Shown here: positions 2,764-10,161 of the stretch, in pieces | Position numbering within the stretch: position 1 is the stretch's first letter | How the letters are laid out: every line of letters starts with the position of its first letter | Assembly (NCBI RefSeq): GCF_003334355.1 | Contig: NZ_QOWP01000056.1 | Origin: Escherichia coli | Lineage (GTDB): Bacteria; Pseudomonadota; Gammaproteobacteria; Enterobacterales; Enterobacteriaceae | Length of the DNA: 10,236 nucleotides | Strand: one strand, 5' to 3' | Program-made: the position numbers and the translations under genes | The notes under the pieces: model-generated | Seen by the model: only the letters and a program-made list of their open reading frames with translations | What the model was told of the DNA's origin: nothing | Database searches by the model: none

Positions 2764-4017
2764 ATGCTGGAACAAATGGGCATTGCCGCGAAGCAAGCCT
2801 CGTATAAATTAGCGCAACTCTCCAGCCGCGAAAAAAATCGCGTACTGGAAAAAATAGCCGATGAACTGGAAGCACAAAGCGAAATCATCCTCAACGCTAA
2901 CGCGCAGGATGTTGCTGACGCGCGTGCCAACGGCCTTAGCGAAGCGATGCTTGACCGTCTGGCACTGACGCCCGCACGGCTGAAAGGCATTGCCGACGAT
3001 GTGCGCCAGGTGTGTAACCTCGCCGATCCGGTGGGGCAGGTAATCGATGGCGGCGTACTGGACAGCGGCCTGCGTCTTGAGCGTCGTCGCGTACCGCTGG
3101 GGGTTATTGGCGTGATTTATGAAGCGCGCCCGAACGTGACGGTTGATGTCGCTTCGCTGTGCCTGAAAACCGGTAATGCGGTGATCCTGCGCGGTGGCAA
3201 AGAAACGTGTCGCACTAACGCTGCAACGGTGGCGGTGATTCAGGACGCCCTGAAATCCTGCGGCTTACCGGCGGGTGCCGTGCAGGCGATTGATAATCCT
3301 GACCGTGCGCTGGTCAGTGAAATGCTGCGTATGGATAAATACATCGACATGCTGATCCCGCGTGGTGGCGCTGGTTTGCATAAACTGTGCCGTGAACAGT
3401 CGACAATCCCGGTGATCACAGGTGGTATAGGCGTATGCCATATTTACGTTGATGAAAGTGTAGAGATCGCTGAAGCATTAAAAGTGATCGTCAACGCGAA
3501 AACTCAGCGTCCGAGCACATGTAATACGGTTGAAACGTTGCTGGTGAATAAAAACATCGCCGATAGCTTCCTGCCCGCATTAAGCAAACAAATGGCGGAA
3601 AGCGGCGTGACATTACACGCAGATGCAGCTGCACTGGCGCAGTTGCAGGCAGGCCCTGCGAAGGTGGTTGCTGTTAAAGCCGAAGAGTATGACGATGAGT
3701 TTCTGTCATTAGATTTGAACGTCAAAATCGTCAGCGATCTTGACGATGCCATCGCCCATATTCGTGAACACGGCACACAACACTCCGATGCGATCCTGAC
3801 CCGCGATATGCGCAACGCCCAGCGTTTTGTTAACGAAGTGGATTCGTCCGCTGTTTACGTTAACGCCTCTACGCGTTTTACCGACGGCGGCCAGTTTGGT
3901 CTGGGTGCGGAAGTGGCGGTAAGCACACAAAAACTCCACGCGCGTGGCCCAATGGGGCTGGAAGCACTGACCACTTACAAGTGGATCGGCATTGGTGATT
4001 ACACCATTCGTGCGTAA
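2764..4017 (+). CDS. proA: Gamma-glutamyl phosphate reductase (glutamate-5-semialdehyde dehydrogenase)
   Basis: 417-aa [35 protein letters not shown]..., recognised as ProA. AGGAG 2751-2755 precedes the ATG; 11-bp gap after proB indicates an operon. Confidence 0.96.
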
Positions 4018-4131: not shown

Positions 4132-4207
4132 GCCGATATAGCTCAGTTGGTAGAGCAGCGCATTCGTAATGCGAAGGTCGTAGGTTCGACTCCTATTATC
4201 GGCACCA
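4132..4207 (+). tRNA. thrW: tRNA-Thr (anticodon CGU)
   Basis: 76-nt sequence GCCGATATAGCTCAGTTGGTAGAGCAGCGCATTCGTAATGCGAAGGTCGTAGGTTCGACTCCTATTATCGGCACCA with encoded CCA; anticodon loop carries CGT; matches E. coli thrW. Confidence 0.96.
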
Positions 4208-4224
4208 TTCAAACATCTCCCCAA

Positions 4225-4245
4225 GTCTACTAAAGTCTTTCAAAA
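4225..4245 (+). repeat. Direct repeat copy 1 (GTCTACTAAAGTC + YYTCAAAA) between thrW and int; candidate integrase arm-type or accessory-factor site
   Basis: 13-bp core GTCTACTAAAGTC at 4225-4237 is identical to 4288-4300; flanking CTTTCAAAA vs CCCTCAAAA. Confidence 0.7.
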
Positions 4246-4287
4246 CCCCTTATAATCCGCGTATTAAAGCCCCGTTCGTCTTTTGAC

Positions 4288-4308
4288 GTCTACTAAAGTC
4301 CCTCAAAA
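4288..4308 (+). repeat. Direct repeat copy 2 (GTCTACTAAAGTC + YYTCAAAA)
   Basis: Identical 13-bp core, 63 bp downstream of copy 1. A perfect TATAAT hexamer (4251-4256) lies between the two copies. Confidence 0.7.
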
Positions 4309-4372
4309 TCTACGGTCAGATGGGGGTACTTATGGGGGTATTTGCTGTTCGGTTTAGTGGAGGTACCCCCAA

Positions 4373-5587
4373 GTGAAACTCAATGCCCGTCAAATAGACA
4401 CAGCCAAGCCAAAAGAGAAGGCTTACAAGCTGGCCGATGGTGGCGGTTTGTATCTCTTGGTAAAACCTAATGGAGGTAAATACTGGCGACTTAAATATCG
4501 TGTAGCTGGTAAAGAGAAGCTATTGGCACTAGGTGTGTATCCTGAGGTTACTCTAGCCGATGCTCGGGCAAAACGTGAAGATGCGAAAAGAGGTATCGCT
4601 GGTGGTATCGATCCGATGGAAGCGAAACGAGAGGAAAAGATTGCCCGGGAAACGCAGTTAAACAACACCTTCAAAGATATTGCCCTTGAGTGGCACAGCA
4701 GCAAATTAAAAAAATGGTCTGCTGGTTATGCTTCAGACATCCTCGAAGCCTTCAACAAAGATGTGTTCCCTTACATTGGCAAAAAACCAATCGCCGAAAT
4801 CAAACCACTTGAACTTCTGAATGTGCTGCGGCGCATTGAGGGGCGCGGTGCTACAGAAAAAGCCAAAAAAGTGAGGCAGCGGTGCGGGGAAGTTTTCCGC
4901 TATGCAATAGTCACTGGTCGCGCAGAGTATAACCCTGCACCAGACCTTACTAGCGCGATGCAAGGCCATGAATCTAATCATTACCCTTTCCTTACAGCCA
5001 AAGAATTACCTGATTTTTTCAAGGCATTGTCCAGTTACTCAGGAAGCGCATTGGTTGTTATGGCGGCTCGTCTACTGATTATCACAGGCTTGCGGACTGG
5101 CGAACTACGTGGCGCATTATGGGATGAAATTGATTTCAACAAGGCTCTCTGGGAGATACCCGCTTCACGTATGAAAATGCGGCGGCCTCATATTGTGCCA
5201 TTGTCTGAGCAGGCTCTTTCGCTTATTGGGAAGATTAGAGAAATAACAGGCAATTACCCTCTTATGTTTCCCGGGCGCAATGATCCAAGGAAAACAATGA
5301 GTGAGGCCAGCATAAACCAAGTGTTTAAGCGCATTGGCTACGCTGGACGTGTAACTGGTCATGGGTTCCGGCACACTATGAGTACGATTTTGCATGAGCA
5401 GGGCTATAACACCGCGTGGATAGAAACGCAGCTCGCTCACGTTGATAAGAACTCAATTCGTGGCACATACAACCATGCGCAATATCTGGATGGAAGGCGG
5501 GAGATGCTTCAATGGTATGCCGACTATATGGATTCTCTCGAGCATGGCGGAAATGTGGTGCATATGGTGTTTGAAAAACACGCATGA
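4373..5587 (+). CDS. Site-specific tyrosine recombinase, P4-type integrase family
   Basis: 404-aa ORF with GTG start, GGAGG 4359-4363. N-terminus KLNARQIDTAKPKEKAYKLADGGGLYLLVKPNGGKYWRLKYR is typical of the P4-family integrase N-terminal arm-binding domain; C-terminal GHGFRHT...RGTYNHAQY carries the H-x-x-R and catalytic Tyr motifs. Sits immediately 3' of a tRNA. Confidence 0.92.
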   Translation: MKLNARQIDTAKPKEKAYKLADGGGLYLLVKPNGGKYWRLKYRVAGKEKLLALGVYPEVTLADARAKREDAKRGIAGGIDPMEAKREEKIARETQLNNTFKDIALEWHSSKLKKWSAGYASDILEAFNKDVFPYIGKKPIAEIKPLELLNVLRRIEGRGATEKAKKVRQRCGEVFRYAIVTGRAEYNPAPDLTSAMQGHESNHYPFLTAKELPDFFKALSSYSGSALVVMAARLLIITGLRTGELRGALWDEIDFNKALWEIPASRMKMRRPHIVPLSEQALSLIGKIREITGNYPLMFPGRNDPRKTMSEASINQVFKRIGYAGRVTGHGFRHTMSTILHEQGYNTAWIETQLAHVDKNSIRGTYNHAQYLDGRREMLQWYADYMDSLEHGGNVVHMVFEKHA

Positions 5588-5840
5588 AACAACTGGACAA
5601 GTATACAGAGGTTTACTAAAGTATAGGGGAGTAGATTGATAAAAACTCACAGAGGATTACTATTTAACAGTTAGCCCTGGAGAAGGGCAATCGCTCTTTT
5701 AACAACGAAGATGGAATCTTCTACGCAGCTGAAAAGCTGGATGCTCTTTAACAGCCTTTGGTGCTTTCCTGATGCAGGAAAGAATAGGGATACATGCACC
5801 TTTACAATGCATGTAATGATTCATCCATGAGGCTGCGGAT

Positions 5841-5863
5841 CGCTGACAAAGCGCAATTGCTCT
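5841..5863 (+). repeat. 23-bp direct repeat copy 1 (CGCTGACAAAGCGCAATTGCTCT) with palindromic GCAATTGC core; candidate operator
   Basis: Identical to 5954-5976. Part of a 26-bp imperfect dyad TGACAAAGCGCAA|TTGCTCTTTAACA. The right arm GCTCTTTAACA recurs at 5743-5753 and, with one extra T, at 5692-5704. Confidence 0.8.
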
Positions 5864-5953
5864 TTAACATTGATGTGGGCGGGATGGTTCGTCCCGCAGT
5901 GACCGATAGATTTCTATCGGGAAACATACAATGATTCAAATATGAATCTACGG

Positions 5954-5976
5954 CGCTGACAAAGCGCAATTGCTCT
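5954..5976 (+). repeat. 23-bp direct repeat copy 2 (CGCTGACAAAGCGCAATTGCTCT)
   Basis: Perfect copy 113 bp downstream of copy 1. Similarity extends upstream imperfectly (ATGAGGCTGCGGAT vs ATGAATCTACGG). Confidence 0.8.
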
Positions 5977-6238
5977 CTTGCCTGCCCACCATGCCCTGAA
6001 AAAGGGCGTTCTTTAAAACTACTGGATGTCACGCCTAATAGCGTGATCCTGCCGAAATGCAGGGTAGCTCTACCCTTGTGGAGCAAACAAACCAAAACAA
6101 TCTGACTATCTTTTATAAAAGACCGCAATATGTTTTTCATATTGTGGTCTTTGGCGTATTCGACATTTGATGCAAATAAAACTCTCGCCATTCGTTGCAG
6201 GAGGGAGTTATTGCGTCATTAGTACAGGATATTAATAA

Positions 6239-6442
6239 ATGGCTAATTACAATTCATTAATTCGTCTCTCTGAAGTTCAAAGGCGAACTGGTTATAGCAA
6301 AGCATGGATTTATCGTCTTATTAGTCAGGGGAGGTTCCCTAAACAGGTAAAAATTGGAAGTCGGGCAATTGCTTTTGTTGAGTCTGAAATAGATGAATGG
6401 ATTGAGAAGTGTATATTAGAATCTAGAGACGAGGTGGCCTGA
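6239..6442 (+). CDS. alpA: AlpA-family phage regulatory protein (Xis/Vis-like winged-helix DNA-binding protein)
   Basis: 67-aa ORF MANYNSLIRLSEVQRRTGYSKAWIYRLISQGRFPKQVKIGSRAIAFVESEIDEWIEK...; helix-turn-helix segment and E-I-D-E-W motif characteristic of AlpA/Vis family; typical position downstream of a P4-type integrase. Confidence 0.85.
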   Translation: MANYNSLIRLSEVQRRTGYSKAWIYRLISQGRFPKQVKIGSRAIAFVESEIDEWIEKCILESRDEVA

Positions 6443-6873
6443 TGGAAAAGAAAAACCGCCCATTACAGGCGGCTAATTCAGATATTCGCGTATCTGATGT
6501 TACGCCCCTGACAAAATCCCTTCAAGCACCAAAGCGCACACCGAAAAAGCATCGTGCCAGAGTCTATATGCTGCGTACTGGTATAGAGGGATGGACAGAA
6601 AATGACATTCTTCGCTACTGCCGTCTGTCTTCTGGTCGTAACTATGCAACAGAGTTAGAACGCCAGCTTGGAATCACTCTGGAGCGTATCGACGAAAAGA
6701 ATCCTGATGGTATCGGAACACACCTTCGCTACCGTTTCTCCTGCCGTGGTGATGTTCTGAAAGTGATCACTCATGTTAACCATCTTGCGAGCATAAATGA
6801 TCACAACGGACTTTCTCAGCAGGAAATTGCCGACATTCTGAAACTCTACCCGGACGCGTTTAACGCCGCCTAA
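6442..6873 (+). CDS. Hypothetical protein (143 aa), basic N-terminal tail; function unknown
   Basis: ATG overlaps the alpA stop (TGATG); GAGGTGG SD at 6431-6437. No family recognised. Confidence 0.7.
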   Translation: MEKKNRPLQAANSDIRVSDVTPLTKSLQAPKRTPKKHRARVYMLRTGIEGWTENDILRYCRLSSGRNYATELERQLGITLERIDEKNPDGIGTHLRYRFSCRGDVLKVITHVNHLASINDHNGLSQQEIADILKLYPDAFNAA

Positions 6874-6885
6874 CGGAGACTGAAA

Positions 6886-7719
6886 ATGAACATCGAAAAA
6901 AGCAGATTAATTTCTGAGGCCGCCCCTCATCTGAACGCCTCTCTGGGCACAATTAACGGTAATGAATTTGCCGCAATTGTCCCGGTTATTCCTGGTCATA
7001 TCGGTGGGCGTGAAACCAATATTGTTAGCGCAAAAGCGTTACACAAAGCGTTGGGCGTGGGAAAAGACTTCTCTACATGGATCACTGATCGCATCTCTGA
7101 ATATGACTTCACCATTGGGCACGATTACTCAGTCCATAAAACAATTTCCCCAAATTTGGGGAAAAGCCCGAATGGCGCGGCTTACAGCAAGATTAAGCAG
7201 TCTGGCAGACCCGGCAAAGACTATCTGTTAAGTGTCGGAATGGCGAAAGAACTGGCAATGATCGAACGCAATGATCAGGGTCGCGCTATCCGCCGTTATT
7301 TCATCCAGTGCGAGGAAGAATTACAGCGTAGCGTGCCTGAAATCGCCGCCCGCTATCGTCGCCAGCTAAAAGCCCGTATCAGTGCCGCAAACAACTTTAA
7401 GCCAATGTGCGATGCGCTGAATATGGCCCGTGCCGAGATGGGTAAAACGACGCAGCAACACCACTACACAAACGAGAGCAATATGATTTCTCGTATCGTT
7501 CTTGGTGGGCTAACTGCTAAGCAGTGGGCGCGGATAAATGGCTATTCTGGCGAACCTCGCGACCATATGAACGCAGAACAGCTTGAGCACCTCTCATATC
7601 TCGAAAGCACCAATATCACGTTAATTGATATGGGCATGGAATATGAGCAGCGCAAAGGAGAACTCACCCGCCTGTCGCAACGCTGGCTCGCCAAGCGTCT
7701 GGAGGTGGTCAATGTCTAA
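6886..7719 (+). CDS. Phage antirepressor-like protein (AntA/KilAC-type N-terminal domain), 277 aa
   Basis: GGAGA SD 6875-6879. Motifs ...AKALHKALGVGKDFSTWITDRISEYDF... and ...DYLLSVGMAKELAMIERNDQGRAIRRYFIQCEE... resemble the AntA-type antirepressor N-terminal domain as I recall it. Confidence 0.8.
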   Translation: MNIEKSRLISEAAPHLNASLGTINGNEFAAIVPVIPGHIGGRETNIVSAKALHKALGVGKDFSTWITDRISEYDFTIGHDYSVHKTISPNLGKSPNGAAYSKIKQSGRPGKDYLLSVGMAKELAMIERNDQGRAIRRYFIQCEEELQRSVPEIAARYRRQLKARISAANNFKPMCDALNMARAEMGKTTQQHHYTNESNMISRIVLGGLTAKQWARINGYSGEPRDHMNAEQLEHLSYLESTNITLIDMGMEYEQRKGELTRLSQRWLAKRLEVVNV

Positions 7720-7894
7720 GCCAACAGGAACACCACAACCACAAAAACGCTACAAAGATGCCCACGGAGCACTCGTTACTGTCGAAAGCGTGTCTCACAA
7801 CCGAGTGACGTTTTATCGCGACGGGTATCAATCGCCATGCGTACAACCGCTGGCGCGTTTCATGAAGGAGTTCGCGGAGGTTAACAAATGCTAA
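7712..7894 (+). CDS. Small phage-type protein (60 aa); tentatively DUF4222-like
   Basis: ATG 7712 with GGAGGTGG 6 nt upstream, overlapping the upstream stop (ATGTCTAA). Translation [60 protein letters not shown]. The track ORF starts further upstream (7625) inside the preceding gene; the internal start is better supported. Confidence 0.65.
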   Translation: MSKPTGTPQPQKRYKDAHGALVTVESVSHNRVTFYRDGYQSPCVQPLARFMKEFAEVNKC

Positions 7895-8955
7895 CCGTCC
7901 AGAAGAAGACATTTTCACTGGCTGGTATGTCGCCAAAATCCAGCAATATGACGGCAAAGTCAGGCATTAATACAGCAGATACAAGCAAAGTTTATCATTT
8001 GCTGGTGGTCGGAACGGATGCCTTAACCATATCAGAAATCTCGGGCGATGATATTAGCATTGAGAAGGTCAGCGGCTGCGCCAGAAAATTTCTGGTCGTA
8101 GATGATGTCTTCCGCTCGTGTAGTGACTCCACAAAAACATTCGTCCACGCGCGTGACGTTAACGAAATGAGCGCGATGTACTGTGCATCTGGTGCTTCCA
8201 ATAGCGAGTTTTCGGAGTCCATAAAAAAGAGCTTGCCGTTATGCGGCAACACGGTTTATGGTTATAAGGCACCTCATAAAACGGGTGCCGGGATTGGCGT
8301 CCTGGTAAATCGAATGGCGACATATGACGCGCCGAGCGTCTTTTTTTATGTCGTAGGTCTGACTCACCCATTTTTTGGGCGTTGGTGTATAATCCAGCGC
8401 CTTTGTCAATCAATGGTGGCTCAGGCAGGGGCTTCTTCGGAAGCGCCGGTATCCATTCGAGCCGGTTACGCCAACCCTGTCTGGGCTACCACCAGCGAAA
8501 TTGGCGTTTCCGGTGGTAGCGTTACATGCTATCGAATGGAGGCTGCCACATGCTGGCTACTACCCCTACCCAAAAACCGCAATTTATCTGGATTATCGCC
8601 GCAGTTCGCCGCGATTGCCCGACAATTACCGCCAAAATTCATCATATTGCTGCCGAGTCTGAACGCGATGCTCGCCGTTCTCTGGTGCGCGATCACGTCT
8701 GCTTTTTTGCTGGTCGTATCCGCATGGAGGTGGCACATGATTAAAACCTACGATGTGCATATGGATCCCCTCGAACGCACAAGCCAGATCATCACACTGA
8801 CAGAAGTGATTAACGACATTCTGGTGAGCAACTCTCCCTCACGAGACGAAAGACTGAAGGCGTTACTCGCGATATTGGATCTCGCCGTTCGTGACGTTCA
8901 TTTCCTGCTGGAAGGTGGCGAAATGCCAGGAAAAACGGGGGCAACCAATGAATAA
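7888..8955 (+). CDS. Unresolved 355-codon open frame: real N-terminal gene start at 7888; frame stays open through the structured RNA region, the Icd-like gene (other frame) and the 8737 small gene
   Basis: ATG 7888 with GGAGG 7 nt upstream and ATGCTAA overlap with the upstream stop supports initiation. No stop in this frame until 8953-8955. Residues ~176-215 ([35 protein letters not shown]) resemble what databases label ash family protein, but this stretch coincides with strong RNA hairpins. The true C-terminus is unknown. Confidence 0.3.
8326..8347 (+). terminator. Intrinsic-terminator-like element inside the 7888 frame
   Basis: GACGC (8326-8330) / GCGTC (8336-8340) 5-bp GC-rich stem, 5-nt loop, followed by seven T (8341-8347). 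A second T6 run is at 8371-8376. Confidence 0.35.
8388..8393 (+). promoter_or_regulatory. Consensus -10 hexamer TATAAT, TG immediately upstream; possible promoter for the structured RNA/icd leader
   Basis: GTGTATAAT at 8385-8393. No convincing -35 at 17 bp spacing, so weak. Confidence 0.25.
8428..8520 (+). ncRNA. Candidate c4/CI-type antisense regulatory RNA (three consecutive hairpins)
   Basis: HP1 8431-8444: GCTTC/GAAGC stem with TTCG tetraloop. HP2 8445-8466: 6-bp stem (2 wobble) with a 10-nt loop carrying TCCATTCGA (8452-8460). HP3 8485-8520: 9-bp stem CTACCACC.../...GGTGGTAG plus 6-bp inner stem, TTGG loop. The HP2 loop is exactly complementary to TCGAATGGA (8532-8540), which overlaps the GGAGG SD of the Icd-like gene, and 8/9 complementary to 8310-8317. 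Confidence 0.4.
8550..8744 (+). CDS. Host cell division inhibitor Icd-like protein (64 aa)
   Basis: ATG 8550 with GGAGG 8538-8542. Translation [64 protein letters not shown]; the F-x-W-x-x-x-A-V-R-R ... E-x-x-A-R-R ... F-A-x-R pattern matches my recollection of Icd-like proteins of P1/P4-type elements. The track start at 8526 lacks an SD. Confidence 0.6.
   Translation: MLATTPTQKPQFIWIIAAVRRDCPTITAKIHHIAAESERDARRSLVRDHVCFFAGRIRMEVAHD
8737..8955 (+). CDS. Small acidic hypothetical protein (72 aa), independently initiated
   Basis: ATG 8737 with GGAGGTGG at 8727-8734; overlaps the icd-like stop as ATGATTAA. Translation [72 protein letters not shown]. Same frame as the 7888 ORF. Confidence 0.55.
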   Translation: MIKTYDVHMDPLERTSQIITLTEVINDILVSNSPSRDERLKALLAILDLAVRDVHFLLEGGEMPGKTGATNE

Positions 8956-9142
8956 CTCAATTAATACCCCTCGCCTTACGTCCGCACTTCAATTAATCGA
9001 GCAAGCAGCGGCTGTCCTGGTTGCTGTCAGTCTTTCGGCTGAAGAAATGGACGCTGCTGATGTCGTGGATGCGATTAAAGCGTGCTCATCTTTGGTTAAC
9101 GATGCCCGTGCCGAGCTGGTAATTCTTGGGGGTGAAAAATGA
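8948..9142 (+). CDS. Small acidic hypothetical protein (64 aa)
   Basis: ATG 8948 overlapping the upstream stop (ATGAATAA); [64 protein letters not shown]. The track start at 8891 lies inside the upstream gene. Confidence 0.6.
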   Translation: MNNSINTPRLTSALQLIEQAAAVLVAVSLSAEEMDAADVVDAIKACSSLVNDARAELVILGGEK

Positions 9143-9402
9143 ATATCAACTTAATTTATCGTCATCCGTGTGAGCTGGAAATTGAATCATTGCTGGGGCG
9201 TGAAGAGCCATATCCAGACACATTCACTCCCGCAGATTGCGCGACTGAACGGCTTACCAGAGCGCGCACAGGTCTGGTTCATGTGATGAATGAGATTGTT
9301 CCCTCGGTGGGAGGGGAACAGGCGACAGTAATCAATAGCTGGCTACAAAAAGTTACCTCCCTGATAGATATCGGTTTAATCGATGTGGAGAGTGCGAAAT
9401 GA
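9139..9402 (+). CDS. Small acidic hypothetical protein (87 aa)
   Basis: ATGA overlap with upstream stop; GGGGGTG upstream; MNINLIYRHPCELEIESLLGREEPYPDTF... Confidence 0.65.
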   Translation: MNINLIYRHPCELEIESLLGREEPYPDTFTPADCATERLTRARTGLVHVMNEIVPSVGGEQATVINSWLQKVTSLIDIGLIDVESAK

Positions 9403-9620
9403 CCAACATCCAGCTCATTGAAGCGCAATGTCGCATCGAACAGGTTCAGACTGTTTTAGGGTTCTGGCTTGAAGGGGCCAGCCCCAGCAACAGAGACAAG
9501 TTAATGATTGGCGCGGTTATGTCACTGCTCAATGGCGTACCAGAAGCTATTCAGGAAGCGGACGAATTGTTGGGCAAATATGAGTTACAGAATCATTCAG
9601 GCGAGGCGAAACATGAATAA
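9399..9620 (+). CDS. Small acidic hypothetical protein (73 aa)
   Basis: ATGA overlap with upstream stop; GGAG at 9387-9390; MTNIQLIEAQCRIEQVQTVLGFWLEGASPSNRDKLMIGAVMSLLNGVPEAIQEADELLGKYELQNHSGEAKHE. Confidence 0.6.
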   Translation: MTNIQLIEAQCRIEQVQTVLGFWLEGASPSNRDKLMIGAVMSLLNGVPEAIQEADELLGKYELQNHSGEAKHE

Positions 9621-10161
9621 TTTCTTAACCTTCCATGCAGAAGCAACGCCTGACGGCGTAAACATCATGCACCGCAGCAACGATGGCATGACAGAACGCG
9701 TTGAGACCGTCTCATATATTGATGCCGTAAATCGTCTGGATGCCGGGGATTATGACGATAAACCAGATGAAGGCATGTTTATACATCTCGCTATTGCCAG
9801 TGGCGGCAACCAGGGATATTTCGATTACACATCACAGCATCACGTGATTATGTGGCGCTGGCTGATAGCAACAGCATTCATCAATGAAATGAGAAAGGAA
9901 AACGGCACCGTCAGCATTATTGATGACAGTGGCAATCATTCCGTGGTTTCTGTTTATTCCAATGGCATCGTCGCCATGCCGCTGTATCCAGTAGCAGAGC
10001 GCCTCGCTATGGCAAACAACATTGAGGGCGCAATGATCGAGAAATATGGTGTTGATGTCGGAACAAAGAATGCCATCATTTTTTACAGCAACATGTTCGA
10101 TGTCGAACAGGGAACACTCACTTCGTTTGGGCGAGAAGTGCTTGCCGATCTTCACAACTGA
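9613..10161 (+). CDS. Hypothetical protein (182 aa); stop codon supplied by the first 3 nt of the downstream IS, so possibly C-terminally truncated
   Basis: ATG 9613 overlapping upstream stop (ATGAATAA), GAGG at 9603-9606; MNNFLTFHAEATPDGVNIMHRSNDGMTERVETVSYIDAVNRLDAGDYDDKPDEGMF.... The track start at 9508 is inside the upstream gene. TGA 10159-10161 coincides with the IS terminal TGAACCGCC. Confidence 0.7.
   Translation: MNNFLTFHAEATPDGVNIMHRSNDGMTERVETVSYIDAVNRLDAGDYDDKPDEGMFIHLAIASGGNQGYFDYTSQHHVIMWRWLIATAFINEMRKENGTVSIIDDSGNHSVVSVYSNGIVAMPLYPVAERLAMANNIEGAMIEKYGVDVGTKNAIIFYSNMFDVEQGTLTSFGREVLADLHN

Follow-up and report, generated by a model that had tools for sequence, protein, structure and literature searches.

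How does a helper phage switch on the alpA gene of a satellite, and what kind of signal is carried by the repeats in front of this gene? The question is raised by a stretch of Escherichia coli DNA of 10,236 nucleotides (contig NZ_QOWP01000056.1, hereafter the window), in which a 651-bp spacer (5588-6238) separates the integrase gene int from alpA. The original prediction, made by inspection of the sequence, had described operator-like repeats in this spacer and proposed that they bind an AlpA-like or other regulator cooperatively. The analysis reported here leads to a different picture. The motifs are very probably RNA signals of the Nus/N type and not DNA operators, and the spacer is predicted to be the untranslated leader of the alpA operon, with a modular array of N-utilization (nut) sites.

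EcCIMP1 is a 20-kb phage-inducible chromosomal island (PICI) of E. coli MP1, located at a tRNA-Thr gene between proA and yagU and mobilized by the P22-like phage vB_EcoP_Kapi1 (PMC11773190). The AlpA protein encoded in the window is identical to EcCIMP1 AlpA (WP_000035054.1), and the window can thus be considered as the left end of an EcCIMP1-family satellite. The other features of this family are also found, namely a tRNA-Thr gene beside proA, int followed by alpA in the same direction and the att core TCCTATTATC, which starts at 4191 within the 3' end of thrW. Near-identical islands carry a primase and PerC; the window stops short of the primase, and mobilization has been shown for EcCIMP1 alone (PMC11773190). 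Neither the window nor the annotated EcCIMP1-type islands contain a gene for an N protein.

From Repeats to boxA and boxB Motifs

The repeats exist as first described. A 23-nt perfect direct repeat (CGCTGACAAAGCGCAATTGCTCT) is found at 5841-5863 and 5954-5976. It is associated with the palindrome GCAATTGC (5853-5860), which lies within an imperfect dyad measured at 21 nt, with 76% complementarity. The presumed half-site GCTCTTTAACA has two exact copies, at 5743-5753 and 5859-5869, and a third copy, at 5692-5704, contains an additional T. The four sites over about 300 bp that had been proposed are real, but their count and extent were too small, since sequences similar to the half-site are also present at 5658-5669, 5971-5982 and 6007-6019. 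The array extends from about 5593 to 6152, and the repeat unit, which is imperfect, measures about 54 nt instead of 23 nt and recurs every 113 nt. The idea of a regulatory array upstream of alpA is retained, as is the view that these are not recombination arm sites (the att core being at 4191).

The identity of the motifs had to be revised. The half-site, in its full form TGCTCTTTAACA, is a boxA that perfectly matches GYTCTTTAANA, the gamma-proteobacterial BoxA consensus of NusB/NusE (PMC5725501). This consensus has three perfect matches in the window, for 0.03 expected, all of them on the + strand and all within the spacer. Two are the TGCTCTTTAACA copies at 5742-5753 and 5858-5869, and the third is GTTCTTTAAAA, internal to the boxA CGTTCTTTAAAAC at 6007-6019. 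Three weaker copies start at 5658, 5692 (CGCTCTTTTAACA, 5692-5704, with one T more than the consensus) and 5971 (the degenerate TGCTCTCTTGCC, 5971-5982). A boxA of the NusB/NusE consensus thus stands repeatedly on the transcribed strand.

The other half of the repeat is a phage boxB hairpin. Its left part, (G)CGCUGACAAAGCG(C), is a boxB; P22 nutL reads CGCTCTTTAAC-9 nt-GCGCTGACAAAGCGC, and the hairpin GCGCUGACAAAGCGC is that of the P22, HK97 and 933W nutL sites. The first copy (CGCUGACAAAGCG, 5841-5853) is of this P22/HK97/933W type, with a 4-bp stem. The palindrome GCAATTGC is the junction between the 3' stem of this boxB (GCGC), AAU and the following boxA (UGCUC). The second copy of the repeat belongs to a nutL-like segment (5923-5970), made of a spacer hairpin (GAUUC-aaauau-GAAUC) and the exact boxB GCGCUGACAAAGCGC (5953-5967), which is identical to the annotated HK106 boxB and to the P22 nutL hairpin. 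The whole segment, spacer stem-loop included, is 94-96% identical to the annotated nutL of 933W, H-19B, HK97 and HK106. Further downstream, the boxB GCCCUGAAAAAGGGC (5993-6007) is identical to that of lambda nutR (GCCCTGAAAAAGGGC). Stems and loops of known N types are thus found in exact form, for both lambda nutR and P22/HK106 nutL. In the window, CGCTGACAAAGCG gives two matches for 0.03 expected, and GCCCTGAAAAAGGGC, with up to two mismatches, two matches for 0.01 expected.

A third specificity may be represented at 6028-6047, where a phage-21-like boxB candidate (GUCACGC-CUAAUA-GCGUGAU) follows the boxA at 6007 by 9 nt. The stretch 6007-6047 reads CGTTCTTTAAAAC-tactggat-GTCACGC-CTAATA-GCGTGAT and has the layout of the phage 21 and Kapi1 nut sites, i.e., boxA, 8-10 nt and a 7-bp stem. 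The likeness is one of similarity only, with 13/18 positions and 4-5/6 loop positions shared, the loop being CUAACA or CUAAUC in other variants and CUAACC in phage 21 and Kapi1. At the other end of the array, a boxB-like hairpin (GCCCUGGAGAAGGGC, 5674-5688, + strand) has a lambda-type stem. The corresponding DNA, GCCCTGGAGAAGGGC, differs from lambda nutL by one loop base (GGAGA instead of GAAGA).

The phage order, boxA and then boxB after about 8-10 nt, is seen from 5971 to 5993 (10 nt, with the degenerate boxA) and from 6007 to 6028 (9 nt). A nut finder that asks for a boxA with at least 9/12 matches and a hairpin no more than 16 nt away picks up both nut sites (nutL and nutR) in lambda, P22 and Kapi1. 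Applied to the window, it retains three + strand sites with spacings of 9-10 nt. Two of these involve 7-bp hairpins, CUUUCCU-GAUGC-AGGAAAG (5764-5782, 10 nt past a boxA, a nut-like spacing) and GCGGGAU-GGUUC-GUCCCGC (5879-5897, 9 nt past a boxA), for which no match was found in the phage collection or in E. coli prophages. The core of the latter, GGGAU-GKUUC-GUCCC, was also observed to recur in arrays from several genera (window 5881-5895, L020 at about 1968-1982 and L101 at about 3806-3820).

RNA Signals or DNA Operators

In the initial proposal, the repeats were DNA operators to which AlpA or some other helix-turn-helix regulator would bind cooperatively. The 21-nt imperfect palindrome centered on GCAATTGC speaks for this view, and AlpA positively autoregulates in EcCIMP1 and EcCICFT073, so that an AlpA site must exist somewhere upstream. 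An operator array would however be recognized by a conserved dyad-symmetric site, whereas the dyad GCAATTGC is broken to GCAATTGT in EcCIMP1, as it is in each of the three compact-array loci whose sequence was read completely. Conservation in related islands is divided: boxA and boxB are kept, while the dyad is lost in most variants. All copies lie in one orientation and on one strand, their sequences equal known RNA signals, and modules are gained or lost as boxA/boxB units. The neighboring hairpins stay paired through compensatory changes, and they use G.U pairs, which are possible only in + strand RNA. The helper effect on alpA is moreover partly AlpA-independent (PMC11773190). Altogether, it is very unlikely that these repeats work as DNA operators of this kind. 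An AlpA operator may lie elsewhere in the spacer, for example near the promoter.

Folding of the spacer RNA gives z-scores of -9.6 for the + strand and -6.0 for the minus strand. Folding energy alone was discarded as a means of choosing the strand, both strands folding far better than shuffled sequences. A coding role for the spacer was also discarded, since it contains short open reading frames (ORFs) only and the length differences between variants are not multiples of three. RefSeq annotates a 129-residue hypothetical protein (WP_225389441.1, 5802-6191, minus strand) antisense to the array; the 427-nt variants lack it, and the gene call is probably spurious. When the entire window was scanned against Rfam (E up to 1), the spacer showed no match, and the only matches elsewhere were to tRNA-Thr, isrK and C4.

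Predicted Promoter and Terminator Framing the Array

Sites predicted from sequence frame the array as is expected of nut sites, in the order promoter-like site, array, terminator-like hairpin and alpA, with all array motifs on the alpA strand. The promoter-like site P1 (5593-5622, + strand) lies directly after the int stop codon, with a -35 TGGACA, a 17-bp spacer and a -10 TAAAGT (5594-5622). The corresponding pattern, CTGGA[CA]A-N17-TAnnnT, is found in 13/160 loci encoding AlpA relatives, never on the minus strand, and an array is present in 12 of these 13. A second promoter-like site (TTGATA, 16-bp spacer, TACTAT) occupies 5636-5663 on the same strand.

A LexA-box-like sequence (CTGGACAAGTATACAG, CTG-N10-CAG, 5593-5608) overlaps the -35 of P1, and its spacing is kept in eight array-bearing lineages. 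Chance occurrences of CTG-N10-CAG are not rare in 10 kb, and its conservation alone is worthy of note. As judged from this pattern, the element may be a LexA box, and induction would then need SOS plus N. Each promoter-like site also contains, in its spacer, one copy of a 14-nt direct repeat, ACAGAGG(T/A)TTACTA (5605-5618 in P1 and 5649-5662 in the second site). These copies, separate from the 23-bp repeats, are candidate sites for a protein, perhaps AlpA.

The stem of the terminator-like hairpin (6118-6156, + strand) is 15 bp long (-20.8 kcal/mol, z -6.0), and the bases behind it are UCUUUGG, or UUUUUG in the STEC variant. The hairpin is located 85 nt ahead of alpA and is kept in every variant. 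Directly before it, an A-rich stretch with more C than G (6078-6117, GC skew about -0.3) is a possible Rho-utilization site; an extra CCAACC is inserted in this stretch in the divergent island STEC2018-607. Upstream of this stretch lies another hairpin, CCUGC-cgaaau-GCAGG (6048-6063), where a U-A pair is replaced by C-G through a compensatory change.

Modular Variation of the Leader

The 3' part of the leader was detected in 292/5426 complete E. coli genomes (about 5%). The long array of the window is found in about 32 genomes, and compact arrays of 392-428 nt in about 237. In these latter, the match is limited to the 27-nt boxB-boxA core and includes one mismatch, which fits the change of GCAATTGC to GCAATTGT. 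Entire modules distinguish the variants: only the long forms have the lambda nutR boxB and the 933W-like segment, while the phage-21-like module and the terminator occur in all variants. Two small hairpins at 5707-5739, GAAGAU-gga-AUCUUC and CAGCU-GAAA-AGCUG (the second with a GNRA tetraloop and a U-A closing pair), show compensatory changes, A-U to G-C in the first and A-U to U.G in the second, and the hairpin 5726-5739 is swapped for a P22-type boxB in two loci (L009 and L011). In STEC2018-607, compensatory changes affect two helices, with U-A replaced by C-G in each. The G.U pairs at 6028/6047, at 6033/6042 and in the terminator allow pairing only in + strand RNA. The nut sites seem to have been captured from resident phages, as is suggested by the 94% identity to phage nutL together with the shuffling of modules.

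These same observations could be read in terms of non-functional debris, i.e., phage nut fragments acquired by recombination with resident lambdoid prophages. One segment is indeed 94% identical to phage nutL, module content differs between strains, and a decaying island, with a frameshifted int and an insertion sequence next to alpA, shows degraded modules. The last point can be turned around, since degradation in a dead island implies selection on intact ones. Arrays of different sequence moreover follow the same grammar in several genera; each time they occupy the alpA strand and are accompanied by the same promoter and terminator. There is thus very little chance that the array is a mere relic.

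These genera emerged from a comparison of 160 loci, each with a gene for an AlpA relative of 68-100% identity. About a dozen of them contain clusters of boxA and boxB-like hairpins, always on the alpA strand and never on the opposite one. The order seen in the window recurs in about a dozen loci of several lineages and genera, Escherichia included. The array-bearing loci come from Pantoea septica, an Enterobacter metagenome-assembled genome, Yokenella regensburgei, Providencia alcalifaciens (whose array is without promoter-like site) and three IMG/VR lineages. Outside E. coli the arrays use other hairpins, such as GCGCUGAAAAAGCGC, CCCUGAAGAAGGG (the lambda nutL boxB core) and UGCUGACAAAGCA. 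The same terminator, ACCGCACAUG...CAUGUUGUGG followed by U's, precedes the alpA-like gene in several of them. Promoter, array and terminator thus travel as one cassette.

Generality across AlpA-bearing elements was considered and rejected, the mechanism being lineage-specific. Many islands with AlpA relatives and no upstream array (L037-L075) have one perfect + strand match to GYTCTTTAANA some 1.5 kb past alpA; the use of BoxA may thus be wider in these islands. In the EcCICFT073 spacer (L180 9161-9525), (G/A)AACAAC repeats occur in runs, together with a LexA-like box, CTGT-N8-ACAC.

Helper Phage and Induction of the Operon

Functional data are available for EcCIMP1. In 2025, Pick, Stadel and Raivio studied an alpA-lux fusion carrying the fragment -449 to +50 (PMC11773190). 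This fragment includes the entire 427-nt EcCIMP1 spacer, which is a version of the window spacer. The fusion was strongly induced when Kapi1 was induced with mitomycin C, and not in a treated non-lysogen; in the absence of alpA it was still induced, to a lesser extent, which makes the response partly AlpA-independent (PMC11773190). The spacer is thus sufficient for a response to the helper, in trans. The inducer is not named in this study, and nut, boxA and antitermination are not mentioned (PMC11773190). In 2018, Fillol-Salom et al. described the identification of the EcCICFT073 inducer as "now under study" (PMC6092414).

The helper Kapi1 encodes an N protein of the phage-21 type, Kapi1_020. 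This protein occupies the position of N and gives a match to phrog_271 ("anti-termination protein N-like", E 3.7e-32). It shares 80% identity with phage 21 N, and over residues 8-29 it is identical to the phage-21 N peptide of PDB 1NYB. The Kapi1 nut sites consist of a boxA, 8-10 nt and a stem with loop CUAACC, the layout seen at 6007-6047 in the window.

A scheme can be proposed on this basis. Transcription would start from the conserved promoter just past the int stop codon, perhaps under LexA control. Without helper, it would stop at the hairpin terminator 6118-6156, or possibly earlier through Rho. Once a lambdoid or P22-like helper has infected the cell or has been induced, its immediate-early N protein, the first product after loss of the repressor, would bind the matching boxB in the nascent leader. 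Host NusB/NusE would sit on the adjacent boxA and, together with NusA and NusG, yield a termination-resistant RNA polymerase able to enter the alpA operon. AlpA would then boost its own expression and drive excision. Since the array combines several N specificities (lambda, P22/HK97/933W and phage-21-like), one island could answer several helpers. We lean, with some reserve, towards such N-dependent read-through as the induction mechanism, in which N as inducer, the start site and the termination site are inferred.

Several observations weigh against this scheme. The action of N in this system is deduced indirectly, and the helper factor could be another protein. The sole hairpin of the proven helper's N type is imperfect at two loop positions (CUAAUA, with CUAACA or CUAAUC in other variants), the loop CUAACC being invariant in the phages read (Kapi1, phage 21, VT1-Sakai and one Stx1a phage). 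The boxA preceding the two P22-type boxBs is 83-87 nt away, the closest one lying 3' of the hairpin, and the first of these boxBs has a stem of just 4 bp, which competes with an alternative pairing in the local fold. Most boxBs stand 0-4 nt upstream of a boxA, as in rrn leaders, the phage order being boxA and then boxB. The covariation is thin, with two compensatory pairs from effectively two lineages, and 15/500 shuffles reach the observed score. In the window variant, the U tract of the terminator (UCUUU) is short. About 90% of the 160 loci are devoid of an array of boxA and lambda- or P22-type boxB. EcCICFT073, the model Gram-negative island, has no array either. Lambda and phi80 induce this PICI, which must thus have another way of sensing its helpers.

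The order of the motifs, boxB and then boxA, is that of rrn leaders and would fit a host-only leader of this type, where boxA would recruit NusB/NusE/SuhB against Rho, the hairpins being incidental and the helper signal acting elsewhere, for instance at the promoter. BoxA-dependent protection of untranslated RNA is well established, in rRNA operons, suhB and Salmonella CRISPR arrays (PMC5725501). The boxA copies also fit the host consensus better than does lambda's own boxA. This explanation nevertheless leaves aside the exact lambda and P22/933W boxBs and the 48-nt stretch 94% identical to phage nutL. The rrn-type complexes counter Rho, not a 15-bp intrinsic terminator hairpin. A constitutive mechanism also mismatches the helper dependence of the reporter (PMC11773190). 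A purely host-directed leader is thus considered unlikely.

The presence of several boxB types in tandem, five or more in one leader, could also mean that the RNA is a decoy, soaking up the N proteins of incoming lambdoid phages, mainly for interference or defense and less as a switch of alpA. EcCIMP1 does add superinfection immunity against Kapi1, and no known defense system was found there (PMC11773190). A decoy would however need high constitutive expression, and the array lies exactly between promoter and terminator ahead of the master regulator gene, in a place that is the same in different lineages. One leader could be decoy and sensor at once, but a decoy as such is quite unlikely to account for the array.

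For the bypass of the terminator, the Pseudomonas aeruginosa AlpA, a Q-like antiterminator, was considered as a model and rejected, since this protein is much larger, with a Q-like fold (PMC9371919). The 67-residue AlpA of the window is a plain PF05930 helix-turn-helix protein.

Comparison with Known Systems

Like nutL and nutR of lambda, P22 and phage 21, the island has a CGCUCUUUAACA-type boxA and boxB on the transcribed strand, with a promoter-like site upstream and a terminator-like hairpin downstream; two island boxBs are identical to those of lambda nutR and P22 nutL, and the spacing is 9-10 nt at three sites. The differences are as clear. The island array belongs to a satellite without N gene (as far as the window and the annotated EcCIMP1-type islands are concerned), it contains five or more tandem sites of mixed specificities where a phage operon has one each, most of its boxBs abut the following boxA in reversed order, and the gene that would be under control is a master regulator.

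The NUT sites of H-19B, 933W and HK97, with their long structured boxA-boxB spacer, resemble the segment 5923-5970, which is 94-96% identical and includes the stem-loop and boxB. In these phages, however, boxA (CGCATTACTCA) lies outside the common segment, and the consensus boxA of the island is 83 nt upstream. The BoxA systems of the rrn leader, suhB and CRISPR arrays share with the island a consensus boxA, a hairpin directly upstream and a long untranslated RNA exposed to Rho (PMC5725501). They differ from it by the phage N-specific loops of the island hairpins, the intrinsic terminator that follows and the helper-dependent expression. The boxB-boxA-boxC order of the rrn leader is also incomplete in the island, where boxB-boxA is present but a conserved boxC (UGUGUGGG-like) is lacking, a boxC-like UGAUGUGGG being found after one unit only (5870-5878) and neither elsewhere nor in the variants.

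Among satellites, the helper-embedded PICIs also tie their expression to helper transcription control, but they act in cis, through late read-through from the helper (PMC10111431), whereas action in trans by an early antiterminator is proposed here. In E. coli 510016, a copy of window 4195-10158 with 99.7% identity (L003, from 12608 onward) sits not at thrW but in a prophage, past the Q gene, where ATTATCGGCACCA forms its junction with a truncated DNA-methyltransferase gene of that prophage; an island inside a prophage gene resembles the helper-embedded configuration of other PICIs. Anti-repression of SaPI Stl and activation of P4 by P2 Cox/Ogr similarly use an early or regulatory helper protein as induction signal. 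These proteins act on a repressor protein or on promoter DNA, unlike the nascent RNA and polymerase processivity proposed here.

Neighboring Genes of the Island

The gene order in the window is phoE, proB, proA, tRNA-Thr(CGT), int, the 651-bp gap, alpA, a 143-residue ORF, an AntA/B-type antirepressor, IsrK and C4. The tRNA-Thr(CGT) gene thrW (4132-4207, + strand) is the integration site of the island (PMC11773190). The tyrosine integrase of the island is encoded at 4373-5587 (+ strand; phrog_1, E 2e-77), and alpA at 6239-6442 (+ strand; 67 residues, Pfam PF05930, E 8.5e-20).

Matches to IsrK (8269-8346, 67 bits) and to the C4 antisense RNA (8409-8496, 79.5 bits) were observed inside the ORF 7888-8955, an "ash family protein" in RefSeq. 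They point to a P4-type RNA immunity module in a PICI, and this module is a possible second target of the N-modified polymerase. In EcCIMP1-type islands (L089 5082-7690 and L092 5481-10827), homologs of P22 ejection or internal proteins follow the primase (DUF2824, "DNA ejection protein" and a lytic transglycosylase protein), consistent with a P22-like helper.

Significance

How helpers switch on Gram-negative PICIs has been a standing question since 2018 (PMC6092414). Nut sites are a textbook subject; a tandem nut array of multiple specificities, before the master regulator of a satellite without N gene, was not met with in the papers searched. Literature searches on PICIs, satellites or alpA together with boxB, nut or antitermination gave nothing relevant and no link between satellites and nut sites. 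For the satellite family as a whole, opinion is evenly balanced on whether a reshuffled nut array serves as a broad sensor of lambdoid helpers, with N as the inducer through the leader RNA, a possible LexA input and a possible override of C4/IsrK. If true, satellites would hijack a viral antiterminator by RNA mimicry, and this way of induction would be new. It would explain why several helpers can serve one island, and the N-modified polymerase could also override the downstream C4/IsrK immunity terminators. The boxB repertoire of an island would then predict its range of helpers.

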